A DNA stretch of 64,000 nt from a virus, in the IMG/VR virus record IMGVR_UViG_3300003629_000001, one strand, 5' to 3'. The notes beneath the pieces were generated by a model, which worked only from the letters and a program-made list of their open reading frames with translations, made no database searches and was not told where the DNA came from. This document shows positions 11,479-39,400 of the stretch, one piece after another (positions within the stretch are counted from its first letter, which is position 1; the number at the start of each line of letters is the position of its first letter). Position numbers and translations under genes: made by a program.

Positions 11479-13518
11479 ATGAGCCAGCGTATAGAGAATC
11501 AGATACTCGCGGAGCGAGGATACGTGTGGCTCTCGAAGCAGGAGAACGAGTGGATTCCATACGTCGGGCCTGACGGTGGTGAAGGATGGCAACGTGTCGG
11601 TGACGACGAGGTGCGATACCAGCAACGACCGCCGGGAGAGACAGCCCAAGGTGTCGAAGAGAACTACTGGACTGACGATTTCGGCGCTGACGCACTTACC
11701 GAGTTCCTTTCAGAACGTCTTTCTGACGAGGATATGGGTCGTATCGGAGCGCGGGTTCAGGACGCCGCTGAAGCCATGAACTCCGATATAGACACCGAAG
11801 CAGGGTACGTATGGGGTCGTCTTCAGCACCGAGAAGAACGGTTCAATCAGCATTTGGGGGACGCGCCGGAAGGTGCGATAGTCGATTTAGTAGACAGTAT
11901 GCTTGGACGGCGAGAAGCGAAGTTCGCCCAGCGTCAGGAAATGGACGAACTCGCCATGCTGGTCGAAGATAACTCCGACATGGGAACCCGCGACAAACTG
12001 AATATCAGTGAAGCGGTGCGTGAAGTTCAGGACGATACCGACCTGACCGAAGAGGAACTTCGTCAAGACCTTTACGAAATGGTCGAAGACGCGGATATGC
12101 CAGCAGAGTACGTGCTGGATAACGCTGGCCTGAACGCGTGGAAAGACAGCAAACGGGCCGAGTGGCGAGACGAGAATCTGACTGGTGAAGACGCGATAGA
12201 AGTACCCGAAGGCCACGAAGGCGATATTACAGAGAGTGACGTTTTCGACGCGCTCAATCACACGTCGCTTTCCGGGTTCCAACTTCCGCTAAATGACCAC
12301 GACCCGATTCCCGCTGTCGCACAGGCTATGGAAGACCAGTTCGGGGACGACCCGAATAAGATGTACGACGAGATAGAAGCGTTCAACGGTGCTCTCGAAG
12401 GCATTCTCAAGCCGTTTAGTCAAACCAGTACGAACGCGCCGGAACACATGAACCCACAGAATGCCGACGAGGTGGGGAAACTGGATAAGTACACCGATAA
12501 GACCGGGCGGTCGTCTAGTTCCATGTTCGTTGCGAAAGGTGTCCCCGACGAAGACGGGAACAAGCGCGACCTGTATATCACGAACACCAACCGGAATCGG
12601 GAAGGGGCCTACGCACAAGACGACGCCGACGCCAACCGACAGATTCTCGGGTCGAACGGATTCCAAGCGGCGGGTTTTGATTCCCCTGACTCGTACCATG
12701 AACCGGGAGAGTTTTGGGCTGTCGAAGAGGCCCCCGGTGATACTGCTGACGAATTTCACGTCGAAAATGACCTTGACAATCCCGTAGAGCAATTCGCTGA
12801 ACTCGGAGCGGCGGCGGCTGTTCTCGGTGCATGGGACATTCACGAAGGGAACGTATTCATCCACGACGGCGAGTTCGTTCCAGTTGACATGGACTTGGCT
12901 GGTGCTGAACTTCACCACAGCGCCGACCACACGTTCAATCGGTATAACGCTGATTTGAATGGGTTCATGGGTCTATTTCCCCGTATGCAACGACTCTTTG
13001 ACCGCATGGACGGTGGTGATACTATCGACTTTGACGAGATAAAGCAAGCCACGAAACGTCGGGTGGCTGAAATGGGTGAGACGGGAGAGGCCAAGGAAAT
13101 CGCTGAAGCCGGAAAGAGCGACATTACACACTCAATCGGTCGGAACGTTGAAGCCAACGTTAGGGCTATTGAGAACCAGAACTACTTCGAGCGTTACCCA
13201 ACTGACGTGTTGGGAGTAAACGGATACGACGAAATGAGTGATTTCCGCGAGGGTCAGGTCGTAGAGGTGACAGAAGACGACCGAGAGCAAAGGAGTCAAG
13301 AGTTCGAGATTACCGAGACATACGACGACCACGTTGAAGTGACCGCCCTCGAAGACGGTGCGATTCTCGGTGAAGGTGAGCGGTGGAACGTTCACAACCC
13401 CGGTGAGATAACAGAAATCATCGACAGTGGGGGCGACGAAGAGGGCGACCCACCTGACCCGATTGACGCGCTCATGGACGAACTGGACGAGCGGCTGGAA
13501 GACGGTGATAGCGAATGA
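11479..13518 (+). CDS. Array protein 1: WIPY tag + helical domain + HipA/PI3K-like kinase + small beta-barrel
   Basis: Tag at 11551. Kinase motifs WDIHEGN and PVDMD at ~12830-12895. Confidence 0.75.
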   Translation: MSQRIENQILAERGYVWLSKQENEWIPYVGPDGGEGWQRVGDDEVRYQQRPPGETAQGVEENYWTDDFGADALTEFLSERLSDEDMGRIGARVQDAAEAMNSDIDTEAGYVWGRLQHREERFNQHLGDAPEGAIVDLVDSMLGRREAKFAQRQEMDELAMLVEDNSDMGTRDKLNISEAVREVQDDTDLTEEELRQDLYEMVEDADMPAEYVLDNAGLNAWKDSKRAEWRDENLTGEDAIEVPEGHEGDITESDVFDALNHTSLSGFQLPLNDHDPIPAVAQAMEDQFGDDPNKMYDEIEAFNGALEGILKPFSQTSTNAPEHMNPQNADEVGKLDKYTDKTGRSSSSMFVAKGVPDEDGNKRDLYITNTNRNREGAYAQDDADANRQILGSNGFQAAGFDSPDSYHEPGEFWAVEEAPGDTADEFHVENDLDNPVEQFAELGAAAAVLGAWDIHEGNVFIHDGEFVPVDMDLAGAELHHSADHTFNRYNADLNGFMGLFPRMQRLFDRMDGGDTIDFDEIKQATKRRVAEMGETGEAKEIAEAGKSDITHSIGRNVEANVRAIENQNYFERYPTDVLGVNGYDEMSDFREGQVVEVTEDDREQRSQEFEITETYDDHVEVTALEDGAILGEGERWNVHNPGEITEIIDSGGDEEGDPPDPIDALMDELDERLEDGDSE

Positions 13519-16202
13519 CAGAAATTGTTCGAGTCTACGACCGTGACGGTGGCGAGTTGGAAGCAAAGGCTGACGTAGGCCCTGACGGACGCCTGATTCG
13601 GGGTGACGAAGACTTTGCTGAAATCGCTACTCGGTTCCTCGAAGAGCGGAGCGTGGACGAGATACTGACGTATCTGGACGGCCCGCATATGCTGGCTATG
13701 GCGATTGACGTGGACGGCTTAGACTACGACCCCGGCCTTCAAGAGAAAATGGAAGGTCGCCGCGCCGCAAAAGAGACACACCACGTTCCTCACAGTACCC
13801 CTATTGAGAATACCGAGAGAACTCATTGGCTCACCGAACCCCGACTCGGGAAAGTCGGTTGGTACGACAGTGATACCGGTGCGTTCCTCTACAGGGGGGC
13901 CAGCGCCCGCGTGAGTGAGTTGCTGAAGAGTGAAGGCCCCACCAGCGGACTCGAAGAGACACAAACGTCGCTGGTGGACTGTCAGGGGCCGTCCAGCAAC
14001 CTTCTCAAGCAAGACGACGGTCAGTGGATTCCGTACAAGGGGCCACAGGAAGGCGAGGGGTGGCAACAGGTCGGTTCCGGCGAGGTGCGATACCAACAAG
14101 AGCCACCCGGTGACGTAGCGGACGGACATGAGGCCGACCACTGGAAACAACGCTGGCCGGAGATTGAGGGCGCGGAGTGGAACGAAGACGTTCCACACCC
14201 GATTGACATGAAAGAGGAAGACGCTCTTCTCTTCGTCAATCGGAACGGCGAGTCGGAAGTGGGCCGTTTCGAGAGTGCGACATTCATTCGTGACGAGAGT
14301 TGGGATAGTGCGAAGACAGGCGTCACTCTCGCTGACGGTCGTCAAGTTCTGACTGACGACATAGCCGCTCATGCGGATATGACTATGGCGGTCGAACCAC
14401 CGAGTCTTCACGGTGACGAAGAGTGGGGTGACGCCCCCGGAGTCTATTCAGATTACATTCCGTGGAATCTCGTTCACTTTGTGGATTCTGACGGTGAAGA
14501 GCGAGTGGCTATGGTCGAAGGACACGCCGACGACCGGGGTGCGGTGAAGGTGCAAACCAACGAGGGATACACGGTCGTTGACCCGAGTAACATTACTCAC
14601 TACGCCGAGGTTGACCAGTTCTATAACGGCGCTTACGAAGTGCTGGATAGTCCCTTCCGTGGGATTCCAGAGATAGAAGACAACGAACAACCCCCGGACG
14701 AGAACTTTGCACAGCGTGTCGGAGTCACGGCTGACGACGTGAACGCCGCGTTCCGAATGGTTTTTGCACCCCACCTTGTGAGCGTGCTTGAAAACGAAAT
14801 CGAAGAGGGTGGGTACGACGCTGACGACCCGGACGACATAATTCAGGCTATCATCGACGTTCGTGGGTCTGAAGACGACACGACGTGGCAATCATTCAAG
14901 CGAGAACTTCGAGGGCGTTCTGTTGGAATCGGGAAGAGCCGGGCGGAACGTATTGTTAACGAAGCCTTTGCTGGCGAAACCCCCGACCCGAGTTTCGCTG
15001 TTCGTCAGGATATGGACAGGATGGACGACCCGGAAGAGTGGCTGAAACAAGCCGCCAAATTCGCTCACGAAGACGAGTTCGTGTCTATCGCTTCGTTACA
15101 GGACGCGGTGGACGAGTGGAAGGGTGACGGTGTTCCATTCAATCTCAAAGGAATCCACGACTTCGACGGTGAACCCGACGAGGTGGTAGCCCTATCAGAA
15201 ACCGGGACGAACACCGGAATCTCCGCCGGGGCCATGTTCATTGCGGACTGGCCGGACGGTAGTAGGGCGTTCGTCACTCGAATCAAGGATAAGGAAACGG
15301 GCCGACTTGTGTCTAACGACCACATGGAAACGTCCGAAGAGGCCGAACGGGCTATGACTGGCTTCGGGATTCAGAACGAACTGGCTCAAGACAACGAGTC
15401 GATTCAGGTTCCCGACCACACGTACTCAATGGACGAGTATTTCAGCGTGAAGGGCGCTCCCAACGACGCGATACTCGCTGACCAGTTCCTTGAGACGTTC
15501 CCGAGTCAGGACATGGAATTGCCGGACGGCCCGCCTGATACGGATATTGTAGAGTCGGTTGGTGCGACGGTCGAAGACGTACAACAAGCGTTCAGTGAAA
15601 CGGTATATCCGGGCTGGGAAGACCACAACGAGACGAAACAAATCTTCCACAGTGACGACAATTTGGACGAAGAGAACTCACAGGACTGGGTGGCTGTCGC
15701 CAAAATCCGTTATGATAAACCCGACCCACGAATTTGGAACGAGTTCGCCCGTGAACTCGCTGGGTCAGCCTACGAAACGCCGGTTGAACGTGAGACGTTC
15801 ATGGACATGGCGTTCGGAGCGGTCATGGCTGGCAACAAAGATATGCACTCGAATAACGTTATGGCGGATAATGAGGGAACCGTCTACCCAATCGACTTGG
15901 ACTTTGCTGGGTACGACATGACCAACAGCCGCAATTTGAGCGCCGCTATCGGGAAACTCGTCAGTACCGGTCAGGCACTCGGAATCGAACCCAGTGAAGA
16001 GTTCGAGGATAAGGGGAACCCCGACGCTTTTGACGACTCGCAACACCCATTAGCACACGAAATCCTCGCGTATATCCACGACAACGCGACCGAGGAAACT
16101 ACGGAGAAGGTTCGGAGTGGGAATCCGATGTGGCGAGACGGTGGGGCTGACAACGTTGCTCGGAACGCGGAAGCGGCAAAGAACGGAGAACTCGAACTAT
16201 GA
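13515..16202 (+). CDS. Array protein 2: DGP domain + WIPY tag + SH3/KOW-like repeats + kinase
   Basis: N-terminal LDGPHMLA, tag at 14025, kinase motifs GNKDMHSNN and PIDLD. Confidence 0.75.
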   Translation: MTEIVRVYDRDGGELEAKADVGPDGRLIRGDEDFAEIATRFLEERSVDEILTYLDGPHMLAMAIDVDGLDYDPGLQEKMEGRRAAKETHHVPHSTPIENTERTHWLTEPRLGKVGWYDSDTGAFLYRGASARVSELLKSEGPTSGLEETQTSLVDCQGPSSNLLKQDDGQWIPYKGPQEGEGWQQVGSGEVRYQQEPPGDVADGHEADHWKQRWPEIEGAEWNEDVPHPIDMKEEDALLFVNRNGESEVGRFESATFIRDESWDSAKTGVTLADGRQVLTDDIAAHADMTMAVEPPSLHGDEEWGDAPGVYSDYIPWNLVHFVDSDGEERVAMVEGHADDRGAVKVQTNEGYTVVDPSNITHYAEVDQFYNGAYEVLDSPFRGIPEIEDNEQPPDENFAQRVGVTADDVNAAFRMVFAPHLVSVLENEIEEGGYDADDPDDIIQAIIDVRGSEDDTTWQSFKRELRGRSVGIGKSRAERIVNEAFAGETPDPSFAVRQDMDRMDDPEEWLKQAAKFAHEDEFVSIASLQDAVDEWKGDGVPFNLKGIHDFDGEPDEVVALSETGTNTGISAGAMFIADWPDGSRAFVTRIKDKETGRLVSNDHMETSEEAERAMTGFGIQNELAQDNESIQVPDHTYSMDEYFSVKGAPNDAILADQFLETFPSQDMELPDGPPDTDIVESVGATVEDVQQAFSETVYPGWEDHNETKQIFHSDDNLDEENSQDWVAVAKIRYDKPDPRIWNEFARELAGSAYETPVERETFMDMAFGAVMAGNKDMHSNNVMADNEGTVYPIDLDFAGYDMTNSRNLSAAIGKLVSTGQALGIEPSEEFEDKGNPDAFDDSQHPLAHEILAYIHDNATEETTEKVRSGNPMWRDGGADNVARNAEAAKNGELEL

Positions 16203-18751
16203 TAGTGTTTTACCGTCTCGAAGGTCGGGACTACAACGAAATCGGGCGTGTCGAAGACGGCGAAATCGTAGACGGCGAAGAGGAACTGGCTGGTATCGTT
16301 CACCCGCCGAACCTCTCCGACGAAGACGAACTACTCGCCGCTCATGACGGCCCACATATTCTCGCCCAAATGGAAGACGAGTCGCCCGGCGAGGGTGGTA
16401 CTGACGCTAATTCTGATAGGGGTACTGAAAAGTGGGTTCCATACACCAACGGCGACGAACGTGGGTGGATTAGTGCCAGCACTGGCGAGAAGAAATTCAC
16501 CGAGGAGGCCCCCGGCCCGATAGTGAAAGGCTTCGAGGAACAGGCGGAAAACTGGACGGAAGTAAAGACGTTGAATAAGGAGTGGATTCCGTATCAGGGG
16601 CCGCACGGGGGCGAAGGGTGGCAAGAGGTGGAGACTGGTGAGGTTCGCTACGTCGAAGAGCCGCCGGGGCGAGTTGGGACAGGTGATGGCGCTCCGCCCA
16701 GTGACGGCATGACGCCTGAAGAACGGGCGTGGCTGGAAGAGCATGGCGACCCGGAAGCACTGTCGGAGTTGGAAGAAGAGGCCCCTGACGGCACGACAGA
16801 AACGAGTGAAGAGATTACGTGGGACAACGTAGCCGCCGGTGACGAAATCGCCTACTACGATGACTACGGCGAACTACAGCAGGGAGAGGTAACTGCTGTT
16901 GAACAGGACGCGTTCGGTGTGATATGGGTTCAGGACGGTCACGGCAAATCGCCAGTCGAAGAAGAGGATTTCATTGGCACGCCGGACGACAAGATTGGCG
17001 ACGGACTCGAAGCACCTGACCACGCTGGCGCTGACTGGTTCGACAATAACCTGTTCTACGGTCAGACTATCAAACTCTACAACAAAAACACCGACATGGT
17101 GGAATACGCGGACGTAGAGAGTATCTTCGTTGCGGGTGGTGAAATCAACGCTGTCGAACTTGAAGTTCAGAATCAACGTGGATTTGGCGACCTTATTACT
17201 ATCACGAACGACGACATAGACTGGCATGACCAAGACGATAACGGGAAGTACGAAATACGAGAGACGAGTCGCTGGTCGGATTTAGAAAAGGACGAGCAAA
17301 TTGACGCTGTGAGACGTTCTTACCGTGAAAATACTCGTCTTGAGACGATGGGTCGGGCTACGCGGCAAAATCTGAATGACGATATTTCTGAAGATATTAT
17401 CCCCTCGTTTAAGGACATGAACGTCGCCCGTGAGACATTCAAGTCACTCTTCAAAATCGGGAACAAGGTATCCCGAGCGAGTTGTAGCGGAACGGGGAGT
17501 GTTTCAATCAAGGTGTCAGAACGAGCGCCTATCGACACGACGAGACACGAATTTGGACACGCTATCGTCAGTTCGTTCGGATATAATTACAAGAATCGTT
17601 ACAAAAATAGCAATTTCTCTGACGAGAAGTACAGGCGGCGTCCGACGAATTTGTCTCACGAGTATCATGACCTGAAGACCCGGTACGATACCATAGCGTT
17701 CGATTTCAGCGAAGATTCAGATTTCTTTGCCCCCGAAGACTATATGCTTCAGGATACCGACAACGACGGCGAGTTTGTAGACTTTGATTTTGACGAAATA
17801 GAGGCTGGAAGGAACATATACATCGAGCCGTCCGATACCTTCATGTCGAATGAGTCATACGAAATTGAGTCAGTTGGTGAAATGGAAGACGGTAAGTTAG
17901 AAATCCACACCAGTATGGCTCAAGACGCCTATGTTGATAGAGAGGGGACTGTCTATCAGTACGATTCGTTCGGTGGTGGATGGGAAGAGGTTGGGGAAGC
18001 AACCGCATTCACTCAAGAGAAACTACCGCACGGATTCGACGCGTGGAAAGACGCTGTAGAGGAAGAGGTTCACGGAGAAACCGATTTGGAACAGAGGGAG
18101 TACGAGAATACCGAGGGTATGTCGCCCAAAGACGTGTTCGAGTCGGTTGATAAGGGCGACGTAGTTCGGTTCCAGCACGAAGACAAGACGATTCACCTTA
18201 TTGCTCAAGAGAAAGAAAACCTCTCTCAAGAAGACCGGCGTGATTATGAGTTCGTTCACCCCGGCGACGGTTCACAGTGGAATTTCACCGTACAGAGTGA
18301 CAACGGTGAACTTCAGTTCTCTGACCACATTGTTACTGGGTACGACGATACATACGGCGAAGAAGACGGGGACAGCCCGAACGTGGATAATCCTCTTGAG
18401 AACTGGGAAGGGTTTGAGCCAAACCCTGAAACCACTGAACAGAGAATAGATAATTTAGTGTCAGCCGTGAACCGTGCGTGGTACAAGCAAGCCAAAATGT
18501 TCGAGAACGACCCTGCTGATTTCGGTAACAGCGCTTACAGTATTGGGTCGGGATACTCGGCCACAAATGCTCAAGAGACAATGGCGAAAACTCATGAGGT
18601 TTTACAGAACGGCGACCAGTTGGCAACCTCGCATTTGATTGAAGAACATCCGTATCTGGTTGCGGCTTATGTAGAACTGTTTGAGCCGCACTTGTACGCT
18701 AAAAAGGCGATTCATCGTCATGGCGGGGAAGAGTACGGGATAAAAGTATGA
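16199..18751 (+). CDS. Array protein 3: DGP domain + WIPY tags + zincin metallopeptidase
   Basis: N-terminal HDGPHILA, tags at 16433 and 16583, HEFGH at 17546, and downstream YSATNAQETMA (third-ligand motif of lethal-factor-like zincins). Confidence 0.7.
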   Translation: MIVFYRLEGRDYNEIGRVEDGEIVDGEEELAGIVHPPNLSDEDELLAAHDGPHILAQMEDESPGEGGTDANSDRGTEKWVPYTNGDERGWISASTGEKKFTEEAPGPIVKGFEEQAENWTEVKTLNKEWIPYQGPHGGEGWQEVETGEVRYVEEPPGRVGTGDGAPPSDGMTPEERAWLEEHGDPEALSELEEEAPDGTTETSEEITWDNVAAGDEIAYYDDYGELQQGEVTAVEQDAFGVIWVQDGHGKSPVEEEDFIGTPDDKIGDGLEAPDHAGADWFDNNLFYGQTIKLYNKNTDMVEYADVESIFVAGGEINAVELEVQNQRGFGDLITITNDDIDWHDQDDNGKYEIRETSRWSDLEKDEQIDAVRRSYRENTRLETMGRATRQNLNDDISEDIIPSFKDMNVARETFKSLFKIGNKVSRASCSGTGSVSIKVSERAPIDTTRHEFGHAIVSSFGYNYKNRYKNSNFSDEKYRRRPTNLSHEYHDLKTRYDTIAFDFSEDSDFFAPEDYMLQDTDNDGEFVDFDFDEIEAGRNIYIEPSDTFMSNESYEIESVGEMEDGKLEIHTSMAQDAYVDREGTVYQYDSFGGGWEEVGEATAFTQEKLPHGFDAWKDAVEEEVHGETDLEQREYENTEGMSPKDVFESVDKGDVVRFQHEDKTIHLIAQEKENLSQEDRRDYEFVHPGDGSQWNFTVQSDNGELQFSDHIVTGYDDTYGEEDGDSPNVDNPLENWEGFEPNPETTEQRIDNLVSAVNRAWYKQAKMFENDPADFGNSAYSIGSGYSATNAQETMAKTHEVLQNGDQLATSHLIEEHPYLVAAYVELFEPHLYAKKAIHRHGGEEYGIKV

Positions 18752-19734
18752 GACTCATAATCACCAACAACAACGACGAGGAACTGGGCGAGATACGGTC
18801 GAATTTCGAGTTCGAGGCTGATATTCCGTTCGAGGATAAGGAACGGATTCGAGCGCTCATGCGTTCAGCGAAGAAATTCGCTATGGACGTAGGGCCAGTT
18901 GAACGCTCCGGGGGCGCGGATGAACGCGAACTAATTACCCCCGGCGAAGAGGTCGTGGAGTTCGAGACGGACGAAGCACTTCCACGCGTCAAGGTCGCTA
19001 TTGACCGAATGACTCGGTATCATGCTGTCCTCGAAGAGACGGAAGAGCGTGAAGCAATCAAGGCTGTTGACGCTCCGTTCAACGCCCCGGATGGAAAGGA
19101 AGTACACGAAGGGCCGCCCGGATTCTTCTACTACAACGTCAGTAAGGATACTGAAGAATCAGGGGATGGTGAGGTGTTGGAAGTTCGGGATTACTACCGA
19201 GTGTGGGTCAACGACCAAGATAGCGTTCCTGACGACAGCATGGCGCTCTACGACGAAGAGGGCGACCCGGCTGGAAATCACTGGTACTACGAAGTACCGT
19301 TCGAGACGAAGACGCGAATCAATCTTTCCGAGCATGAAGTTGACCCGTCGAATGTGATAGAAAAGGACGCTGACGTTGAACTCTCACCTGACGAACTGAA
19401 CGAGTACGGTATTTGTAAGTCGGATAACGAACGGATACAGGAAGCCAGTGAAGCCGTTGAAAAAGGTGAGCCGGTGTGGGGCGATACTCATTCGGTGAGT
19501 GGGGCTGTTCTCAAGTCAGTAGAGTGTCCGTCGGTGTTGCTCTGTCTCTATAAGTTGTTTCACAATGCTGGCGACGAGTACACCCAATATCTCCCACCGA
19601 TTCAAACTGAACTCAATCACCGTGGCGTCAAGGCGATAGATAAAATTACACGGAAGAAGCGAGATTTCGGTCAAGCGACCGACGACGTGACGCTCGAAAA
19701 GAGCGGCGATTGGCTTGAGTTCGAGCGAGAGTAG
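18748..19734 (+). CDS. Array protein 4: hypothetical; N-terminus is a candidate peptidase inhibitor
   Basis: Coupled by ATGA to the zincin gene. Contains APDGKEVHEGPPGFFYY, a possible tag variant. Confidence 0.6.
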   Translation: MRLIITNNNDEELGEIRSNFEFEADIPFEDKERIRALMRSAKKFAMDVGPVERSGGADERELITPGEEVVEFETDEALPRVKVAIDRMTRYHAVLEETEEREAIKAVDAPFNAPDGKEVHEGPPGFFYYNVSKDTEESGDGEVLEVRDYYRVWVNDQDSVPDDSMALYDEEGDPAGNHWYYEVPFETKTRINLSEHEVDPSNVIEKDADVELSPDELNEYGICKSDNERIQEASEAVEKGEPVWGDTHSVSGAVLKSVECPSVLLCLYKLFHNAGDEYTQYLPPIQTELNHRGVKAIDKITRKKRDFGQATDDVTLEKSGDWLEFERE

Positions 19735-20602: not shown

Positions 20603-20607
20603 CTGTA

Positions 20608-30700: not shown

Positions 30701-31319
30701 CACCAGTCACCACCGCTCGGAGCGGATTGACGAGGTACGGAATCAAGGCGAGGAAGACGCCGAGCGGGCTATGGCTGGCTACGAAGCCTTCAAGGCCGCT
30801 GGTATGGACGTTCCTCGCCACGAACGGCTCAAGACGGAATACTGGACAGTTGAAGAGGCTGACGGTCAACCAGCGAGGGAGTGGGGCGGTGAACCGGACG
30901 AAGCCATGCGTGACCAGTTCGCTAAACTCGGCGCTGTCGCCATGCTCTCGGGGAACTGGGATATGCACGGTGGGAACGTCTTCGTGACCGAGAACGGTGG
31001 TCTGATTCCAGTTGACCTTGACTTGTCGGGTCACGATATGCAATCCCGCGACTGGAAGCACACGTCGTGGGGGCGACTCAAGAGTTTGGGTCGAACGCTG
31101 AATATGTACGAGGTGAGAGGTGACGATAACGAAGTTCTCGAACTCAAGCGAGACGTGGCCCGTGCGACACAGGAACTAATCGAAGACGGAACAGCCGACG
31201 ATATAAAGAGTATGGCGTCCAACGTGGATAATAAGGATATTCAAATGGCTATCGAAGAGAACGTCTTCGCCGCCAAAGGTGGGCGGCTCTACGACGACAG
31301 AGTGCGGGGTGACGAATGA
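24738..31319 (+). CDS. Array protein 7: 2193-aa polyprotein with DGP domain, 5-6 WIPY tags, ParB/Srx-like domain, 2 ARTs and a kinase
   Basis: Tags at 24960, 26001, 27306, (28950), 29112, 29835. Motifs QEGRHRALAA; FRG..LSSW..ENE; FRG..NSWS..EAE; GNWDMHGGN..PVDLD. Confidence 0.8.
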   Translation: MTVVVYELNDDAEYEELGSHTDQEAVENDDLLDIFPEQVWQDHSDEWLSERIDGPYVMAAIQDEDSETTEKISMWTPYVGPNGGEGYQHMLTDEVRYVDEEPTDDEAPGNDVDVDEPESGELNEMTGISDASYIEDNLPVTATWENDDGESFVGQIEEVDYGGFDEKFVIAATNGRRYEVNGDDLTGYIEPTPEYNPESDEEDGRIRDGFERIKEKLGEGVIPPRPTPNMGNGGSRPEQSDFRQIASEDDAEKLQQIIDTGDTGNIQVGIEAVGDGVDYGPWDADTDNLNYFDGGQFTNIDVEMPVEDFLATQTDMLSSDRNHPQEAYESFHRVRTDDVEEYAEVLQNEPGEMPMPYIEFGRNGNMRNSQEGRHRALAARMAGLDTMPVRFVLNPDRDGKGAEDRVDWGQDLSKPVEKRTKWRPYLGPRGGEGWIKPFSFTDDKIVYDEEPPGEVSPEYSEDYWHDRPSPVNEDIVNLVDSHLEGVRARPYKLDEPTADFFEEGLEAGYHPNAVSEAAEWKLKSMEKEIGDGGRLEENDVQKVLRDAATQFLDRQTEQEIEIEGGKRGGGVISLGEIDNNFKRDWWDNFESEIGYTDDQMTNEKPAYSAIRNWSITSSMFSQSTAPLIKAAMRESDNDFIPVNGEEVRETDVTDREIEHVLEYKEAMTELYRSVYGDTVPCFRGIDGQSSQIDGMREDIQEGKGIELPEATLSSWATEPGTAMRFAGSIHTDGYSEGGVVIRQEVPVEQLFVTGDTHPGLLNNENELVVNAPEPETRYEPDNLILPSETTALEQAVWAAERANRDTDVSEEAAKAVQRALLSKQEMNQYASIAIENYDWFRQTVGEQTQPDIKSKEWIPYEGPRGGEGWQNTEDRDDIRYGLEDPPGEVAEGYEDMAEDWGAGEDAVEIPEKFEGEYAPEDITPIPGDPAEWGDEFPISEGQTLLGQNWEWDIENLWFQGSDTHVPEPRMELAIPTGVSHKFGYVSDSVKLQGMEPGWFKNPAIPSKQNKQEFVGVVGEPEPRDMSFNPTGEAANASFDLDEAAERMSQEIRDRNSWENKKAGIYAAELIEEHDPSYETLLAITRYGLESNGQSINEDRDIDDAQEIVLDGIDQHLDNEAPDHPTLKGKLSLSHADPELTEDFMSRMTPDTRETVNTAMGEWIRGQGSMVDEYTLPIYRLAAHTYENDFYPTRGDVGKLIAEADDVEAADSLEVRQERLERYRQKTVETFREVFGDTVPVFRGYDPGEQSKGKEAREALQAEDAPSEIEIRNGVANSWSTNPTVAFQFSTWNTEDYPGIVVRQELPVEQIFGSSDTTTSGRSDEAEIVAGNPEEYTNHSRDDVFLPEEFDPIEQMRWALSGIENDASEEEEKADGETLSLDWELESVDWLRRYRKMEDALTKENWTPIDVGDQRGYQHVVSGETIVSKAGIPFSNTARQAGHTPLSAVVMDSDALGKEWVPYHGPRGGEGWRNTTTENIRYGLDEAPRPAENDPDELTEENIEEADIQQSFGLMQTTANDLVEGEKLHFEVQGHPYETRVQEVTDDAIHAIDTETHREFEIPTDERGMAESGLTLASPQAVFFGHGIAGSESSWLPEEDEPSQIELEAEALRSAASTDGFGDTSYIEGFAARASELGAGRDEITNAIHGALEEHPALNTDLADEIYENGQRLLEIEESLTDKSLARSYPITPIRTMRKEWIPYRGPQDGEGWQNVNNPDDIRYGLEDPPGEVAEGYEEQAEDWGPSSDEEPDRVQGATLVDYNIPGSDKDIQVPKNFTADDLKNTIRRFRDDNEGDLLTELANVVQMQNDGNLNDKMDVLHGTAEVLGNHPEIIDQYNDLLHEEIADTPNANFDVPFGFDGVDVHNMLEDTFGPHSEIVGELEDMVLFGDVDEEKADNWITAAEGWIRNYGDRKMADKFKDTIADAELANPFSNTDEYAAQEEISDDLNPAKASRVVPISDTEASTGISADSMFIAEYDDGHRAFVTNTSHHRSERIDEVRNQGEEDAERAMAGYEAFKAAGMDVPRHERLKTEYWTVEEADGQPAREWGGEPDEAMRDQFAKLGAVAMLSGNWDMHGGNVFVTENGGLIPVDLDLSGHDMQSRDWKHTSWGRLKSLGRTLNMYEVRGDDNEVLELKRDVARATQELIEDGTADDIKSMASNVDNKDIQMAIEENVFAAKGGRLYDDRVRGDE

Positions 31320-33652
31320 CCGTCACCTTCTACGAACTCGGTGAAAACGACTACACCGAAATTGGTCGTATCCACGACGGAGAAATCGTAGACGGCGAAG
31401 ACCAACTGGTCGCAATCGGCGCTGACCAGTTCGCGGACAACGAAAAGAAACTACTGAACGTCTACGATGGGCCGTACATCGTTGCTGGAATTGGGACGCC
31501 TAATACCCTTACTCAAAAGTCGGACAAGGCACTTCGGAAGAGCGTCGAAACAGTCTTCAAAGACTGGATTCCCTACGAGGGGCCACAGGGCGGGGAAGGC
31601 TGGCAAAACACCCTGACAGGCGAAATCCGCTATCAGGAAGGGAAGCCGAGTGGCGCGGGAAGTGACGCCGACGTTACTGTCCCCGGCAACTCTACGATAC
31701 AGACTGTCTCGGCGGCTATCACGTCAGTCCTCGGCGCGACAGTCATGCAATCGCTCAAGCAACAGGCGACCGGTGGCGGTGGGTCATTCAACCCACAGAC
31801 GTTCGTGACCGCCGCCGCCATGTATATCGCACAGACTGGTAAGGGGTCGCTCGGAGAACTACAGGAAGCGTTGGATACCGAAGCCGAGAGCGAACCCGAA
31901 GACGCTCAAGACGTGACGATTCAGACCGAGAGTGGCGAAATCGAATCTACGACTCAAACGGGTGTCACCGACGTAACGAGCGCGATTACACAAGTCTCGT
32001 CGGAAGAGACGGTCGCTCGTCTCGGCATGACCATGAGCGAGGAAGAGAAGGAAGACCCCGAAGCGTGGATTCGGGCGTTTGGTGATAGCGTTACTGAAGA
32101 AGCCAACCAGAACTTCCAAGACGCTCTGGACGAGCGGATTCGTGAACGGACGGTTTCGACTGACAAGTACCGGGGTGGTGTCGTTGTTCCGAACGAGGTG
32201 ACGACGGAACAGGTGAGAGAGGCTATGGGAGCGACGATGGACGCCGAGACGGTAGAATGGCTGTCCGGGGCTATGGAAAACAGCCCCGCCGTAGACGGGA
32301 ACGACCCCGACTCATGGGTACGGGCGGCTCTCACACAGATTGGTGACGATAGCGAACAACGTACCGAGTTCCAGAACCAGTTCGACGTTTCCGCCGCTGT
32401 ATCCGAAGAGGGTGACGGCGACGTTGGGACTGTCACCATGTCGGGTGGCGGTGAGAGTATCGAAATGCCGACGAACACCAGCGCTGAAGAGGCACGGGCC
32501 GCTGTCGAAGAGACGCTGGGTCAGGACTTTCTCACCCACACAGCGGGCTTCATGGAAGACCAAGGCGCGGACGTAGAAGACCCGAAGCAGTGGGTCATGA
32601 ACGGGCTGACGCTCTCTCAAATCGCCAACCCGGAAGGCTTCGAGACGACTGTCAGCGAAATGCAAGACAGTCTGATTGAAACCAACGAGGAACCCGAAGA
32701 GAGCCGGGCGACTCAAGTCGTGACGGAACACGACGCCGAGGGTGACTGGCAATCATTCGTAGACCCAGTGACCGACCTGCTGGAAGAGGGCGAGAGCGCT
32801 GGCGACATTGTTCAGAGTCTCAAAGAAGACGCCGAAATCGACGGCCACCCGCTTCAAGACGAGCAAATTCGGACACTCGCGTTCGAGGCTCACAAGGAAG
32901 CCAGCGAGCGGAATCCGCCCGGTGTAGACGAGACACCGGACACGCCGTCGCTCGCTATGGACTGGGGTAACGAGTTCCCTGAAGCCATGCGCGACCGTAT
33001 GCAAGAGAACCACCCCGAAGCCTACGAGCAACTGAACGAGTCCTTTGAACCGTGGTCAGACGACCCCCACAGCGAGGAAATGAACTCGTTCTGGAACTAC
33101 GCGGTTCAGCACAGTGGGAACGGGAACATTCCCGAAATGGAAGGCCGCCCGGAGAACGTCACGCAAGAAGAGGTAGAGGCCGTACAACGGCTACACGAAG
33201 TGACACAGGATACGCTCACCGAACTCTACGGGGACACCGTACCGCTCTTCCGTCCGGTGGGTGGAAGCGCCGCGAGTGAACTCAAAAACGCAAAGGAGAG
33301 CGACGAAGACGACGATATTCAGTTCACCCACCGCCCGGCTGAATCGTGGTCGGGCGACATTGAGCAAATCGCGCAACGGACAGACTTTGAAGACGGTGAA
33401 TCGGTTGTCATTCGACGCGAAGTACCTACGGAAGACGTACTGGCGTCGTCTGTTACCGGGTCGCCGGGACTGGACGCACAAGACAACGAGTTCGTCGTCT
33501 CGTCGCCAACAGAGACGGAGTACAAACGAGGTGACGTGTTGACTGGCGACGACCTGAAAGACCCACAGGCAACGATGGAACAGGCGGCGTGGGCGAATAA
33601 GACCACTGGCGGGACGGAGCAAACGGAAGCAAACGAGGAAGGTGGAGAGTAA
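31316..33652 (+). CDS. Array protein 8: DGP domain + WIPY tag + helical repeats + divergent ART-like domain
   Basis: YDGPYIVA, tag at 31565, VPLFRP..ESWS..VVIRREVP..DNEFVV. Confidence 0.7.
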   Translation: MTVTFYELGENDYTEIGRIHDGEIVDGEDQLVAIGADQFADNEKKLLNVYDGPYIVAGIGTPNTLTQKSDKALRKSVETVFKDWIPYEGPQGGEGWQNTLTGEIRYQEGKPSGAGSDADVTVPGNSTIQTVSAAITSVLGATVMQSLKQQATGGGGSFNPQTFVTAAAMYIAQTGKGSLGELQEALDTEAESEPEDAQDVTIQTESGEIESTTQTGVTDVTSAITQVSSEETVARLGMTMSEEEKEDPEAWIRAFGDSVTEEANQNFQDALDERIRERTVSTDKYRGGVVVPNEVTTEQVREAMGATMDAETVEWLSGAMENSPAVDGNDPDSWVRAALTQIGDDSEQRTEFQNQFDVSAAVSEEGDGDVGTVTMSGGGESIEMPTNTSAEEARAAVEETLGQDFLTHTAGFMEDQGADVEDPKQWVMNGLTLSQIANPEGFETTVSEMQDSLIETNEEPEESRATQVVTEHDAEGDWQSFVDPVTDLLEEGESAGDIVQSLKEDAEIDGHPLQDEQIRTLAFEAHKEASERNPPGVDETPDTPSLAMDWGNEFPEAMRDRMQENHPEAYEQLNESFEPWSDDPHSEEMNSFWNYAVQHSGNGNIPEMEGRPENVTQEEVEAVQRLHEVTQDTLTELYGDTVPLFRPVGGSAASELKNAKESDEDDDIQFTHRPAESWSGDIEQIAQRTDFEDGESVVIRREVPTEDVLASSVTGSPGLDAQDNEFVVSSPTETEYKRGDVLTGDDLKDPQATMEQAAWANKTTGGTEQTEANEEGGE

Positions 33653-35394
33653 TGGTGAAAATCGACGCGTCGGAGTACGAGACGAACTGGCTCACTGACA
33701 GTCCCGAAAAGGAAGGTCAGCCGAACGACGACGAGGAAGTGGCGGAGTCTGACAGTACCCCTACTGAAGAAAATCAGGCCCAGCAAGCCACGAAGGCGCT
33801 CAAGTCCGCTTTGGATTCTACCTTCGAGAAAGACGAGTGGATTCCCTATGAAGGGCCGGAAGGTGGTGAGGGGTGGCAAAATACTCAAGACCCGGACGAT
33901 ATTCGATATGGACTTGACGAACCGCCGGGTGAAGTAGCCGATGGGTACGAAGAGCAAGCGGAAGACTGGGGTGAGAGCAACGAGGAAGACAACGAAGACG
34001 GCGGTTCAGAACTCGGGAACTTCCTTGACGAACTCAGTCATACAGAGGCCAAAGAACCAATTGAACAGGATATACACTCGGTAGCGTCGGATACCGATAC
34101 CAGCCCCGAAGAGGTTGCTGGTCGCCTTCACGACCGACTTGAGCAACGCCAAGACCGAATCGGGAATTTAGACCAAGCCAACACCGAGCAATTTTCCGGG
34201 TTGGCGAACTCTATGCTCGAAAACATCGGGGAAGAGATAATCGAAGAGCGTAACCGAGATGAGTTGACGGAAGCGGTCGAAGGATACGACGAACTCACCT
34301 CTACGAAGGTCACGAATCATTACATCGACAGTGCGGTCGAACAGGTTCAGGAATCGACTGACTGGGGACGTGACGAACTTCGCCAAGACCTACTATCGCA
34401 CCTCGGAGAAGAGGGCGTTGACCCCGAAATCGCGCTGGACGAAGAGGAAGGGTTGGAAGAGTGGGCTGAAGCCAAAATTCAAGAAGCCGAGGAAGGCGCT
34501 GACGCTCCGTCTGACGTTCCTGACGGCTGGGGGAAACCCGAGGAAGTGACGTTCGGAGAATGGACGGAGTTCGAGCAAGGTGACGCCCAGTTCCTCGAAC
34601 ACGGTGATAGGGTTACTGGTACTCGCAACGGCGACGAGTTCGAGGGAACGGTTCGACACACTCCCGAAGACGGACTGGTCGGTATCGAAATGGACGAAGG
34701 TCACGTTCAGACAGTCGAAACGTGGGATATAGACCAGTACCAGAGTCAAGACCGTGACTTGGACGAGACACGCGACGAACTCCGTGACCACTTCAGCAAT
34801 ATCAGCCAGCACAACCAGTCGCTACAAGAGTACACGGGCCAAGCCCACCGAGAAATCAACGGCCATATGCGAGATACCGCGAAAGAGGTAGAAGCGGACT
34901 CGAAGGGGAAACTCGAACACGCTATTATGGCTACTGCTGACGCTGATACCGCTCGGGTAATCAGCGACGTGCAAGCGGCGACAAAACAGACACTCCCCCG
35001 AGAAATGAACGTCGCTCGGGGTATCGACGTGGACGCTGGGTCGTTCATGGACAAGGCTGAAGAGGCTATGGAATCGGGCGGAGCGCTCATGGACGAAGGC
35101 TTCCAAAGCGCGACGATTGACCGAGACGTGGCGGAAGGCTTCGGCAACATCACACTGGACATTCAGACCGACCACGGCGTCTACGCACGGGCCGCCAGCG
35201 AGTTCGCTGGGGAAGACGAAGTGCTACTCCCCGCCGGGACGCAATACGAGGTGAAAGACGTTGACAGGGAGAACAACACCGTCAGCGTCGAAGCCTACGG
35301 CGGATTCAGTTTCAACGTGGACGTGGGCCACGTTCGGGAACTGATTCACGAAGAGGGAATGTCCTACGAAGAGGCAATGGAATATGTCAGATAG
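33652..35394 (+). CDS. Array protein 9: WIPY tag + helical domain + VIP2/C3-like ADP-ribosyltransferase
   Basis: Tag at 33838. YT..INGHMR..VARG..DEGFQSAT..EDEVLLPAG gives the R-S-E triad. Confidence 0.85.
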   Translation: MVKIDASEYETNWLTDSPEKEGQPNDDEEVAESDSTPTEENQAQQATKALKSALDSTFEKDEWIPYEGPEGGEGWQNTQDPDDIRYGLDEPPGEVADGYEEQAEDWGESNEEDNEDGGSELGNFLDELSHTEAKEPIEQDIHSVASDTDTSPEEVAGRLHDRLEQRQDRIGNLDQANTEQFSGLANSMLENIGEEIIEERNRDELTEAVEGYDELTSTKVTNHYIDSAVEQVQESTDWGRDELRQDLLSHLGEEGVDPEIALDEEEGLEEWAEAKIQEAEEGADAPSDVPDGWGKPEEVTFGEWTEFEQGDAQFLEHGDRVTGTRNGDEFEGTVRHTPEDGLVGIEMDEGHVQTVETWDIDQYQSQDRDLDETRDELRDHFSNISQHNQSLQEYTGQAHREINGHMRDTAKEVEADSKGKLEHAIMATADADTARVISDVQAATKQTLPREMNVARGIDVDAGSFMDKAEEAMESGGALMDEGFQSATIDRDVAEGFGNITLDIQTDHGVYARAASEFAGEDEVLLPAGTQYEVKDVDRENNTVSVEAYGGFSFNVDVGHVRELIHEEGMSYEEAMEYVR

Positions 35395-36400
35395 TGAAAA
35401 ATACACAGCGGAAGGCGAAGACATTCGAGTCGTTGGCCCCGAGTGGGGCGAAGAAGACGAGGAAGTGACCACCGAGAAGAACTGGATTCCATATCGCGGC
35501 CCACAAGGCGGCGAAGGCTGGCAAGACACACAGAATCCTAACGACGTTCGGTACGACCTTGACGAACCACCGGGGACAGTGGCCGCTGGGTATAGCGAAG
35601 ACCACTGGGAAATGGACGACCGAAGCACCAGCGTCGAAGACAGTGAAATGGGCTACGTCTCTGAAGGTGCTGGTGGGCCGTCTCTGGACGTTGCCACTGC
35701 TGACCACGCACAGTCCTTACACGAAGCCGGAGCGTCAGAGGGCGCGTCCTCGCGCCATATGCACGTTGCTACGTGGGAGTCCGAAGACGGAGAGCCACGC
35801 CGAGCGTTCGTAACGAACTACGGGCCGGACATGAGACGGAACGAGACAGGCGAGAAACCGCTATTAGGTGAGCGTGCAATCGCCGCTGACGCGTTCTTCC
35901 GCAACATGGGATTCGACCCGCCAAAGCACTTCCTGAACCGCCAGCAACGCTATCTCGCGGTCGAAGGCAAGGACGGGAAGGAAGTACGACACGCTCCCGA
36001 CGAGTGGAAAGAGAACATCGACCGCGACGGAGTGCTGAATTTCGCCGCAACAGCGATTATTGCTGGCAACTCCGACCTTCACCCGAAGAACGTGCTGGTC
36101 AACGAGAACGGTGAGTTCTTCGCGGTGGACTTGGACAAGTCGGGTGGAGATTTCGCTAACGGCCCCGACCGGTTCCAACGCCGTGGATTCCAGTCGATTA
36201 CGTGGACAGCCCGAAACCTCGGTCATAGTCTCTCAAAGGAAGAAATCGACCAACGCGCACAGGAGTTGTGCCGAGATATGGATATTGACCGAATGACCGA
36301 GAACGTTCAAAACAGTACGTGGTCACGGAAAGGCCGACACCAGTTCCGTGATAACATTATTACCAACATTAAAGCACTACGCGAAGGAAGCCTACTGTAA
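35384..36400 (+). CDS. Array protein 10: WIPY tag + HipA/PI3K-like kinase
   Basis: Tag at 35483, kinase motifs GNSDLHPKNV..AVDLD. Confidence 0.8.
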   Translation: MSDSEKYTAEGEDIRVVGPEWGEEDEEVTTEKNWIPYRGPQGGEGWQDTQNPNDVRYDLDEPPGTVAAGYSEDHWEMDDRSTSVEDSEMGYVSEGAGGPSLDVATADHAQSLHEAGASEGASSRHMHVATWESEDGEPRRAFVTNYGPDMRRNETGEKPLLGERAIAADAFFRNMGFDPPKHFLNRQQRYLAVEGKDGKEVRHAPDEWKENIDRDGVLNFAATAIIAGNSDLHPKNVLVNENGEFFAVDLDKSGGDFANGPDRFQRRGFQSITWTARNLGHSLSKEEIDQRAQELCRDMDIDRMTENVQNSTWSRKGRHQFRDNIITNIKALREGSLL

Positions 36401-39400
36401 TGGCTGTCGTTATCGAAGAGTTCGACATAGGAGATATGTCGTGGTCTACCCTCGGTCGCATTGAAGATGGGGAAATTGTGGCCGACGGCGACGGGTTCCT
36501 TTCCGAACTCCTTTCTGACGACGAACTCGGTGACGAAGACGAACTACTGAATCGGTTCAACGGCCCGCGTCTTGTCGCCTATCGTGATAGGGGTACTCTC
36601 GGGAAAAACTGGATTCCGTATCAAGGGCCGATGGGTGGCGAGGGGTGGCAAAACGCGAACGACCCTGACGATATTCGCTACGTAGACGACCCACCCGGAG
36701 AAATCGAAGAGGGGTACGAGGAACAGGCGGAAGGGTGGGGTGAGAGTGACCAAGAGCGTTTTGTCAACGCTGTGGAAGAAGAATACGGAGTTTTCGCCAG
36801 TTCCCTCGCCAACGCGTTCACCGAAGAGACGGTTCTGAAAGACCCCTACGATTCGGGCTACGTAAAACTCGCCGCGAAGGTGGTCTTTGGTGAAAATTAC
36901 CCGGACGAGTCGGTTGCGGAATACTACGAAGAGTTTCGAGAACTCACGAATCTGGATACCATTCAGACGCCGCGAGAAGCGACGATGGACGTTATAGCGG
37001 CAATTGACGAACTCGAACCCACCAAGTCGCAAAAGAATCAGGCACTTGACGCGTTGCGTGACCGGTACAATATCATGCAATCCGCTGACGGGTTGCCTCA
37101 AGTACCGCTGGAAGACAAGGGGCCAAGGGACTGGAAAGAACACGTCCCCGGTCGTGGCGAAGATTACGACTGGGGGACAGTGAACACGCAAGACGCTGTT
37201 CTCTATCAAACCGAAGACGGCCTCATGAATGGCCGAATCTGGAAGTATGAGGGCGAAGACGACCAAGACGTACTCTACACACTGGAAAACGGCGAGACTC
37301 TGTATCACGAAGAGATTGAGGCGTTCTACCCCAACGAGAAAGAAGCGCTCCGGGTCGGTTCAAACGCTCGCGTTTCCGAGGGCAACTTCCTCACTTTCGA
37401 GATTGACGGAACCCCGTATCAAGGAGAAGTATCGACAATTGCGGCGCGTGACGGTCAAAGAGTCGAAGCACTGATTTCGACGCCGGGGGCTATGGTTCGA
37501 CTTTCATCTACTACTGAAGAAGGCCGTGACCCACAACTTGAGTCCGTTCAGGGTGACGACATAGAAATCATCGAACGACAACGAACCCTTCCTGACGATT
37601 TTGAGGGAATGGCGGAAGGCGTCAATCGGGAAGCGGACGCGGTTGCACGCGACATTACGGATAATCTCGGTGACGAGTGGCATAGAAGTATGTCGCTTGA
37701 GCGAGACGTGCAAAATGAGTTAGAGAAATACTTCTCTTCGACCGCTGTCAGTCAGTTTTACGAAGCCGTCAACGACTGGAAACAGGACGCTTCAAGTGGC
37801 CTCTCCGGCCTTCACGCGTCGTCTTTCCAAGAAGCGCTGGATATACACAGCCCCGCTCGCGGGTGGGACGAACCCAGCAAAGAGAACGTTCAGGTAGCGA
37901 AGGTCATGTACGAAGTGAGTCAGGAATACCTGAAAAAGACTCACGGAAGTAGCGTTCGCTTACACCGAGGAATGTCTAACACCGGATTCCGTCGGTTGAT
38001 GGACACATGGTTAGAGAACCCGAACGCTGACGAATACGACTTGAGTCAAATGGCGTTGAACAACTATACGCCACAGGTGGGTATTGCTGAAGGATTCGCA
38101 CACGATACGGCTGTCGTCACCAGTCGTGTCAGTACAGACAATATCGCGTTCGCTATGGACGCCCTCGCCGCTCGCTCAATGGACAACGAAGGCGAGGTTC
38201 ACGTCATGGGCGACGGTATGACGGTTGACCACAGCGATATTGCGTTCGGTGAACACCGAATCGAACTTGACGAGTTCCCCGACGGCTGGTCGCTTGAAGA
38301 GCATGAAGACATGGTGGAACAACTCAAGCACCACTACGCTGGTCGAATGCCGCTTCCGAAAGAAAGCCACGAAGAAATCTTCCAGAAGTGGGCGGAATCA
38401 GTCAAAGAGAACCACCCCGAACTGGTCGAAGGCCCGAATCCCAACCCCGAGATACAAGAACTCGTCAAGACAATCGAAACTGACGCATTCCTACAGTACG
38501 AGGTTCGACAAGGGCCACAGACCCAACTGGACGAGTTCGAGGATAAGCAGGACTCGAACCCAGTTATCGACCTAACTGACGACGCGTCCGCTCGGTGGTC
38601 GGCCTATGACCCCGCCGAGATTCCCGACACAGTGAAAGAGACGAAATGGAACCAGTACCGGAACTGGCAACAGAGTCTACAGGAGAAATCCAGTAGCCCC
38701 ATTGGAAAAGCGTGGATTCCCTACGAAGGCCCGCGAGGTGGGGAAGGTTGGCAAAGTGCGAACGACCCGAACAAAGTCGTCTACCAGCAAGAGCCGCCGG
38801 GGGAAGTGGCCGACGAGTACGACGCCGACCACTGGGAAGAGTATCCGAGTGACGGTAACTGGCCCGAATCGCCACACGGAACGCCGTGGGAACAGCCACA
38901 GGGCTTCGGACGAGACGCGGGTATGCAACTCACCGACGCGGTGGCGTTTATCAACTACGACGACGAGGTAGTGGCTGGCGAAATTGCGGAGTTCAACGAC
39001 GACGAGAAGACGTACAAACTCGAAAATGGCTACGTAATCAGCCACAGTCAGGTCGTCGGCTGGTCGCAACCGCCCGAAGGTGAGCGCGTCGAAACGTCTG
39101 TTGGTATGGTTACTGAAGGCGACTGGATTACCTACGACACGTCCTACAGCGAAGACCACGTTGCACAGATTTCCGACATAGAAATCAACGACGACAAAGA
39201 CATTATCTCGGTCGTTGGGGAACACGGTTATTACGAGATTGAGGTGTCCGGGCGTCCGAACAACCGCAACGAGTTCAACGCTAAAGTTCAGCGTATCCAC
39301 ACCGAGGAACCCGACCTGTTCGAGAACGTCGAACAGAATGGCATGGCTATGGAAACCGACGATATTGTCGGTGAAATGAGCGAGCGAATCGACCTGAAAG

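Follow-up and report, generated by a model that had tools for sequence, protein, structure and literature searches.

The 64,000-nucleotide stretch of DNA analysed here (the window) corresponds to bases 28361-92360 of the 100,408-bp IMG/VR virus record IMGVR_UViG_3300003629_000001, judged 98% complete. The genome belongs to a salt-lake archaeal virus related to HCTV-1 and HVTV-1, two haloviruses of the family Druskaviridae. In its major capsid protein it shares 64-66% identity with HCTV-1, HVTV-1 and HCTV-5, siphoviruses of haloarchaea. Genes of the window follow the order large terminase (TerL), portal, HNH endonuclease, DUF192 protein, an array of 11 open reading frames (ORFs), HNH endonuclease with small ORFs, protease-scaffold protein, major capsid protein, tail tube and tape measure. 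The array ORFs, cited below by their start positions, encode, in order, 679, 895, 850, 328, 265, 1377, 2193, 778, 580, 338 and 1608 residues. Nine of them carry a recurrent protein element with a W[IV]PY signature, hereafter the tag, for which the initial annotation of the sequence had proposed a role as a capsid-targeting signal. Here we describe the tag, its predicted fold, its family and its genomic context, and weigh what it may do.

A regular expression applied to all six frames recovered 14 copies of the tag, and a hidden Markov model (HMM) built from these found 16 significant copies (E-values from 8e-11 to 8e-22), all on the plus strand, all in the coding frame and all confined to nine ORFs between positions 11545 and 38850 (Table 1). 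The element is therefore real and its number falls within the 15-18 copies claimed initially; its restriction to the array was likewise borne out, since an HMM search of the whole virus record returned the same 16 copies and none elsewhere. Along the array, the ORFs hold 1, 1, 2, 0, 0, 2, 5, 1, 1, 1 and 2 tags, the maximum being five (in the 2193-residue ORF) and not six as first counted, and the first copy of each tag-bearing ORF lies within its first 25-171 residues. The consensus reads K-x-W-[IV]-P-Y-x-G-P-x-G-G-E-G-W-Q-x-x3-5-[IV]-R-Y-x3-4-P-P-G, and the frequent continuation noted earlier (EVAEGYEE..W) recurs as an extension of the form G-[YHVF]-E-E-x2-4-W in 11 of the 16 copies. At conserved residues, the third codon positions of the copies are only 46% identical, which indicates that the copies are old and have been kept by selection at the protein level; the maximum nucleotide identity between copies is 84% over 45 nt. 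A recent DNA repeat or gene conversion was considered as the origin of the tag and rejected on the third-position identity. Separately, the tag-less ORF 18748 seems to hold a decayed tag at about residues 108-130 (APFNAPDGKE..VHEGPPGFF), with the middle strands deleted, which aligns to the intact tag (residue 98) of its counterpart in the halovirus contig L028.

An AlphaFold2 model of the tag, built on a 41-row alignment, has a predicted local distance difference test score (pLDDT) of ~90 over the 40 residues from the first Trp and an average of 57 over the preceding ten; in it, short strands span 10-15, 21-25 and 32-33, and the halovirus extension is helical. When the N-terminal domain was included, a second model gave the same tag fold and a preceding linker of pLDDT <50, and in these models low-confidence linkers lie on both sides of the tag core. 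As modelled, the tag is an independently folding domain of ~40-45 residues, a three-stranded beta meander that in the halovirus copies is joined by a short helix. Foldseek comparison with the PDB returned mostly WW domains (target-normalised template modelling score 0.5-0.64, root-mean-square deviation 2.0-2.6 Å over 26-31 residues, E-values 1-5), VIA-align gave a Z-score of 2.0 against the WW domain of WBP4, and WW families appeared again in the viral library BFVD and in the ESM Atlas (5 of 10 Atlas rows), where the top match was a viral cluster aligned at 1.9 Å. The WW domain is the commonest named match in the three structure libraries and the nearest known fold, with scores below threshold, and we describe the modelled fold as no more than WW-like. 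The modelled tag resembles the WW domain (PF00397) in its length of ~35-40 residues, in a sheet of three antiparallel strands, and in having Trp at the N-terminal end, a second aromatic 12 positions on with Asn two residues after it, Thr in the second loop, a further aromatic at position 23 and a Pro that closes the domain; the W1-W13-N15-T18-Y23 spacing equals that of WW domains. Unlike WW domains, the tag has Tyr for the second signature Trp, a Gly/Pro-rich first loop (GPxGGxG) and a closing Pro five residues after the aromatic instead of three. Its PPG segment is part of the confidently modelled core, as the terminal Pro of WW domains is part of theirs; we know of no proline-rich ligand for the tag.

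A search of 1.84 billion cluster representatives with the 16-copy profile (E ≤ 1e-3), of the kind the initial annotation had called for, yielded 475 matching representatives, both halophilic and non-halophilic. Approximately two thirds of the members are highly acidic (halophilic) and the remainder are of ordinary composition; the best 150 of the 475 representatives contain 317 tag copies, with two to six copies in 106 proteins. The non-halophilic consensus is W-x-x-Y-x-G-P-R-G-G-x-G-W-[KR]-N-x-x-T-G-E-[VI]-R-Y-Q-x-E-x-P-G. The aromatic and polar surface residues W13, N15, T18 and Y23 are conserved between copies from bacterial and archaeal viruses, and the halophilic copies, net acidic, have Gln or Glu in place of the non-halophilic basic residues. 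DNA binding by the tag was considered and appears unlikely given this acidity. Tag-holding viral contigs range from 45 to 74% GC. Scans of a viral collection with smaller tag alignments gave 4 and 19 loci, and a single locus was found among 185,579 reference cellular genomes, in Haloarcula salina. A tblastn search with one halovirus and one non-halophilic tag found no match in 50,697 GenBank phage records, although queries this short show close copies only. With one cellular locus and no GenBank phage match, the family is thus known almost only from uncultured viruses. The tag matches no Pfam or NCBIfam family at E ≤ 10, its profile retrieved nothing beyond chance from PDB sequences (E ≥ 0.9), and we found no description in the literature of such a tag, or of a WW domain, in the phage polyvalent proteins discussed below. 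Far from being peculiar to haloviruses, the tag is a folded domain that occurs widely in tailed viruses of both bacteria and archaea. The Haloarcula salina locus (scaffold NZ_WRXL01000002.1; L009:7710-8132) is a 140-residue ORF with a canonical tag at its end and may be what is left of a provirus.

The placement of the tag is strictly polar. Among the best 150 of the 475 members, the last tag always has 126 or more residues behind it, the tag is never C-terminal to cargo, and the first tag lies no more than 130 residues from the N-terminus in 118. Single-module ORFs bear it too, some with only 6-30 residues ahead of it, which makes the tag more than a separator. In two non-halophilic contigs, presumably of bacterial viruses (L006 and L007), a Mu-type portal is fused via the tag to effectors (InPase; 2',5'-RNA ligase plus ADP-ribosyltransferase, ART), and tag-headed ORFs follow, with MuF last. 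In L028 (113 kb), the portal is followed by ORFs of 656, 609, 2619, 1930, 716 and 336 residues and one truncated ORF, with 14 tags. The order of portal, tag-headed ORFs and MuF is conserved across these three contigs and the virus studied here. Homology blocks shared by the present array and that of L028 start at tags and extend into the downstream cargo, in other ORFs and in another order, so that the evolutionary unit is the cassette of tag plus cargo; ORF borders differ between the arrays of related viruses.

As to the cargo, most array modules have no Pfam match; at E ≤ 1, scans covering every ORF and module brought up no peptidase family and left most modules unannotated. Recognisable domains are a PF03496 ART in ORF 33652 (residues 370-540, E=6e-11), a PF07357 DRAT-like ART in ORF 36400 (E=3e-5) and a MuF head-morphogenesis domain at the C-terminus of the latter, and the single module of ORF 35384 (35384-36400, 338 residues) combines a weak CotH match (E=0.06) with a kinase-type catalytic loop (NSDLHPKNVLV ... 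FAVDLD). Paralogous and non-paralogous modules coexist within array ORFs. Twenty-eight non-halophilic tag members carry ART-PolyVal, Portal_Mu, MuF, Zeta toxin, sigma-70, topoisomerase IB, InPase and other domains. Phage-type polyvalent proteins are described (Iyer et al. 2017, PMC5512222) as giant multi-domain proteins in which unrelated enzymes, among them ART, kinase, nucleotidyltransferase and zeta toxin, are combined; their genes lie in the neighbourhood of portal, terminase and MuF genes, and packaging and injection are predicted for them. The present array, which fills the portal-to-MuF interval and carries ART, kinase-like and MuF domains, therefore consists of phage-type polyvalent proteins. 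As in the cases described in that paper, a DRAT-like ART and MuF are combined in one polypeptide (ORF 36400), the array lies in the head-gene block, with TerL and portal upstream, MuF at its end and protease and major capsid protein downstream (Table 1), and members of the tag family carry the hallmark domains ART-PolyVal, Portal_Mu, MuF and InPase. By contrast, the sections of PMC5512222 drawn on here describe no reiterated header domain, no LPD family derived from that work matches the tag (Pfam, E ≤ 10), and zincin metallopeptidases, a frequent though not obligatory hub of such proteins, are invoked there for processing, whereas most array ORFs of the present virus lack any Pfam match. Those sections also report polyvalent proteins to be scarce in archaea, with bacteria the source of nearly all proteins exceeding 1,000 residues, whereas this archaeal virus has a 30-kb array. 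The proteins belong with the polyvalent effectors of phages, predicted to be virion-delivered, and what is new is their folded header domain, hitherto undescribed, and its presence in an unusually large array of an archaeal virus.

Further features of the array ORFs concern their modules and N-termini. Modules paralogous to that of ORF 35384 are present in ORFs 11479, 13515 and 24738, and the last ORF (36400-41226) contains two paralogous ART-like modules (LHRGMSNTGF... and VHRGISNTAF...), each followed by a short peptide of the form [VT]IDLTD[DE]AS..W. A second element of ~60 residues ('DGP' element; M-x-V-x-x-Y-E-L...G-R-I-x-D-G-E-I-V-D-G-E...D-G-P-[YHR]-[IL]-x-A) opens five or six of the eleven ORFs, ahead of the first tag; AlphaFold2 predicts a beta hairpin plus helices with modest confidence (pLDDT 65-74), and homologues start ORFs in the L002/L011/L013, L003/L014 and L028 arrays.

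The residues just upstream of the tag are also constrained. The earlier claim that a Lys almost always precedes it by 0-8 residues holds for 14 of the 16 array copies (chance 0.23 each, binomial P = 1e-7) and fails for the other two; in eight the Lys is exactly at -2 (background K = 3.3%, P = 1e-8). Among halophilic tags (n = 165), Lys occupies positions -4 to -1 in 77% of cases versus 16% of control windows, and a hydrophobic-x-K motif occurs in 39% versus 7% of controls. In non-halophilic tags, Met is enriched upstream instead of Lys (33% versus 8%), and several lineages have R-M-[AS]-type motifs directly upstream. The linker residues that bear the Lys are disordered in the models, and a gene for an HK97/S78-type prohead protease lies 4 kb downstream of the array, which makes a cut just before the tag, leaving tag-headed fragments, plausible. 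Homologues of this protease-scaffold protein include some with PF04586 Peptidase_S78, and those of HCTV-1 and HVTV-2 are named prohead protease. The HK97 protease itself cuts its capsid protein after Lys103; a literature search on the sites that HK97-type proteases prefer to cleave gave no usable result. A search for PF04586 in four complete or near-complete tag-bearing virus genomes gave no match, a result that is uninformative because the protease of the window also escapes Pfam.

The reading that we favour, with a probability of roughly 0.45, is that the tag is an adaptor for loading into the head, immediately preceded by a site for the prohead protease; it draws on the strict polarity, the single-module ORFs, the confinement to the head-gene block and the upstream motif in a linker modelled as disordered. 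The tag heads every tag-plus-cargo cassette of a portal-to-MuF array of polyvalent effectors, proposed to be virion-delivered, and during procapsid assembly it would dock the cassette to a conserved internal head component (scaffold/protease, portal crown, MuF or the inner face of the capsid) or, in some phages, dock the portal's own C-terminus. The flexible upstream linker would carry a lineage-specific site (hydrophobic-x-Lys in haloviruses) at which the prohead protease, itself HK97/S78-like, would cleave the polyproteins to give units headed by a tag, and these would leave with the DNA at infection. The initial suggestion that mature fragments begin with the tag fits the polarity, the single-module ORFs, the head-gene block and the Lys in the modelled flexible linker, while tag-headed cleavage itself is a step that we infer. 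A more sweeping form of the proposal, which we consider less likely than not, makes the tag a universal, transferable domain for head loading, common to tailed viruses of bacteria and archaea; it would bind one conserved procapsid component, and whatever protein is fused behind it would be packaged, trimmed at the adjacent site and injected.

Several observations weigh against the head-loading adaptor. The complete phage genomes L025 and L027 (52 and 57 kb, with terminal repeats) have one tag each, formed by the C-terminal 50 residues of the portal (PF04860; L025:8213-10120 and L027:7346-10120) with no cargo behind it, and portal-fused effectors also bear the tag; a portal needs no address label, and the role of the tag is therefore broader than that of a cargo address. 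Hence, the initial view of the tag at the head of each cargo module stands in that the tag is a discrete N-terminal unit, but not for these two phages, which have it only at the C-terminus of the portal. Two ORFs of the array contain no tag by HMM. The upstream Lys is absent in non-halophilic members, and cleavage just upstream in its Lys form is, judging from these sequences, no family-wide feature. The structural scores for the WW comparison are below significance (Foldseek E-values of 1-5, VIA-align Z of 2.0), and eight tag peptides scanned against Pfam at E ≤ 10 gave no PF00397 match, as did the whole-ORF scans. From the portal-terminal copies, the tag must contact something inside the head that also matters to portals. 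Scaffolding proteins of P22 recruit both portal and pilot proteins, and the MuF protein gp7 of SPP1 binds the portal; by analogy, a scaffold-type or a MuF-type partner would fit the portal-terminal tags. Directly downstream of the L025 and L027 portals lies a weakly MuF-like gene (PF04233 at 20.8 and 13.2 bits, below the 29.6-bit cut-off).

Four other explanations can be envisioned for the tag. It could be a processing signal only, a prohead-protease exosite presenting the adjacent linker so that polyproteins and portal-fused effectors are cleaved, with head incorporation left to the MuF or portal fusion or to the N-terminal 'DGP' domain. Such a signal would account for the lineage-specific residues directly upstream (Lys in haloviruses, R-M-[AS]-type in several non-halophilic lineages) and the linker modelled as disordered, and portal-tag-effector fusions would indeed need release from the portal; yet single-module ORFs with only 6-30 residues before the tag have nothing to separate, portals ending in a tag have no cargo to release, and phage proteases are usually far less conserved than the tag, which makes this explanation unlikely. 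It is more improbable still that the tag acts during or after delivery, as a leader needed to traverse the portal and tail channel or as a binder of a cell target conserved across bacteria and archaea: although its N-terminal place on every cassette, its small stable fold and its conservation across viruses of very different hosts would suit this role, the tag also stands at the C-terminal end of portals, proteins that are not injected, it is hard to think of a target shared by haloarchaea and the hosts of viruses with 45-74% GC, and the acidity of halophilic copies argues against DNA binding.

A passive joint, that is, a robust mini-domain serving as spacer and recombination-friendly cassette boundary at which effector modules can be exchanged without misfolding, with no binding function, would explain why the breakpoints of cassette shuffling fall at tags and why ORF borders vary between related viruses. 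The copies, however, are a poor substrate for homologous recombination (46% third-position identity, at most 84% over 45 nt), the surface residues W13, N15, T18 and Y23 are conserved from bacterial to archaeal viruses, and neither strict N-terminal polarity nor copies on single-module ORFs and portals would be expected of a spacer; we give this explanation little credence. Least probable in our estimate is an association of tags with one another or with portal tags, directly or through Pro-rich tails (EPPGE), condensing the cargo into a portal-nucleated inner body. The WW-like fold, the PPG segment after each tag, the many copies per set of virion proteins and the tagging of some portals would be in line with it, but in single-tag phages the only contacts would be homotypic ones of the portal, and the PPG segment belongs to the confidently modelled core.

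A close parallel to the proposed head-loading adaptor is the capsid-targeting sequence (CTS) of T4, an N-terminal peptide of ~10 residues on the internal proteins IPI-III and Alt that is cut off by the prohead protease, these proteins being loaded into the prohead and injected; by way of the scaffold core, the CTS also brings heterologous proteins into the prohead. Like the CTS, the tag is an N-terminal element common to otherwise unrelated proteins, for which head loading, injection and coupling to the protease are proposed here. Unlike the CTS, it is a folded domain of ~40-45 residues that occurs internally up to five times per ORF, it has its candidate cut site upstream, so that it would stay on the cargo, it is also found on portals, and there is no sequence similarity between the two. 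It differs from encapsulin-type cargo peptides, which are short, C-terminal and bind the interior of an HK97-fold shell, in being folded and N-terminal to the cargo. The cultured viruses HCTV-1, HVTV-1 and HCTV-5 resemble the present virus in their head module (portals ~52% identical, protease-scaffold fusion) and in the large ORFs that separate portal from protease, among them MuF ('gpF-like', 'head assembly') and a 'zeta toxin' protein, whereas the arrays of HCTV-1 and HVTV-1 measure only 8-10 kb. Their tags are divergent (KEWVxDPxDxAPNRWxNTxTGExRYQExKPG), keeping the W1-W13-N15-Y23 spacing with a different first loop, and the HMM finds only a half-motif of them.

Table 1 Features of the window (positions in the window; ORFs named by start position; aa, position of the tag within its ORF).
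Feature	Position	Strand	First Trp	Location and evidence
Large terminase	6000-7457			
Portal protein, 719 aa, upstream boundary of the array	8025..10184	+		phrog_18178 portal E=4e-181; weak PF04860 match; 53% identity to HCTV-1 portal
HNH homing endonuclease	10181-10765			
DUF192 protein	10720-11475			PF02643 E=4e-26
Array of 11 co-directional, mostly overlapping ORFs, 9 with tag	11479..41226	+		9,891 aa in total, 29.6% of genome
Tag 1	11545..11673	+	11551	ORF 11479, aa 25; HMM E=1.7e-19
Tag 2	14022..14147	+	14025	ORF 13515, aa 171; HMM E=2.7e-19
Tag 3, degenerate WVPYTNGDERGW	16427..16564	+	16433	ORF 16199, aa 79; HMM E=4.9e-15; family-wide HMM E=8.5e-6
Tag 4, 50 aa past tag 3	16577..16696	+	16583	ORF 16199, aa 129; HMM E=4.3e-18
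Putative decayed tag	19069-19140			ORF 18748
Tag 5	20686..20802	+	20689	ORF 20608, aa 28; HMM E=3.3e-15
Tag 6	22363..22500	+	22366	ORF 20608, aa 587; HMM E=4.7e-19
Tag 7, WTPY variant, missed by the regular expression	24960..25049	+	24960	ORF 24738, aa 75; HMM E=8.4e-11, and E=3e-19 in whole-genome search
Tag 8, WRPY variant	25998..26132	+	26001	ORF 24738, aa 422; HMM E=1.5e-11
Tag 9	27300..27446	+	27306	ORF 24738, aa 857; HMM E=3.8e-21
Tag 10	29106..29243	+	29112	ORF 24738, aa 1459; HMM E=5.7e-18
Tag 11	29829..29975	+	29835	ORF 24738, aa 1700; HMM E=2.2e-21
Tag 12	31559..31681	+	31565	ORF 31316, aa 84; HMM E=3.2e-18
Tag 13, heads ADP-ribosyltransferase module	33835..33981	+	33838	ORF 33652, aa 63; HMM E=7.5e-22
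Tag 14, heads kinase-like module	35477..35620	+	35483	ORF 35384, aa 34; HMM E=1.2e-21
Tag 15, heads DRAT-like ART module	36604..36750	+	36610	ORF 36400, aa 71; HMM E=3.9e-21
Tag 16, heads second ART-like module, then MuF	38707..38850	+	38713	ORF 36400, aa 772; HMM E=3e-19
Second ('DGP') element	13515-13700, 16199-16390, 24738-24930, 31316-31500, 36400-36585; related form 18748-18950			
MuF (head morphogenesis) domain, C-terminus of last array ORF	40312..41199	+		PF04233 E=1.2e-6; PHROG head-morphogenesis families over aa 1305-1600
HNH homing endonuclease, also with helix-turn-helix and NUMOD3 motifs	41241-41987			
Prohead protease fused to acidic, Gly-rich scaffold-like C-terminal half; candidate processing enzyme	45376..47319	+		phrog_23555 head maturation protease E=1e-103
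Major capsid protein, HK97 fold family	47231..48667	+		65% identity to HCTV-1 major capsid protein; phrog_24667 E=2e-203

Several neighbouring features are worth recording. The protease-scaffold protein contains two EVPPE motifs in a poly-Glu stretch, followed by a run of ~45 mostly Gly residues, and ends in NPALANFY, an extreme C-terminus that is nearly invariant across 36 homologues and is likely a capsid-binding end of the scaffold. The DUF192 protein between the portal and HNH genes and the array has a C-terminal tail with a Cys motif (DPCWEGYE...VPNCVP) matching PHROGs of unknown function. The HNH homing-endonuclease genes that flank the array agree with the HNH richness reported for HVTV-1 and HCTV-5.

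Proteins injected by phages constitute a large reservoir of anti-defence and host-takeover enzymes that are hard to recognise by sequence, and a conserved header provides a direct search handle for such effectors in metagenomes, where it has already led to 475 cluster representatives. To our knowledge, no cargo-loading signal of this kind is known in archaeal viruses, and the array, at 30 kb and ~30% of the genome, is the first large polyvalent effector array described for one. The tag represents a concrete, mutable element for studying the recruitment of cargo into HK97-type capsids outside the T4 model, and the divergent tags of the cultured relatives HCTV-1 and HVTV-1 make the hypothesis testable in the laboratory. 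Should the tag prove to be a universal loading domain, its profile would list the injected-effector repertoire of uncultured viruses and the tag would be a programmable cargo-loading handle, archaeal viruses included.

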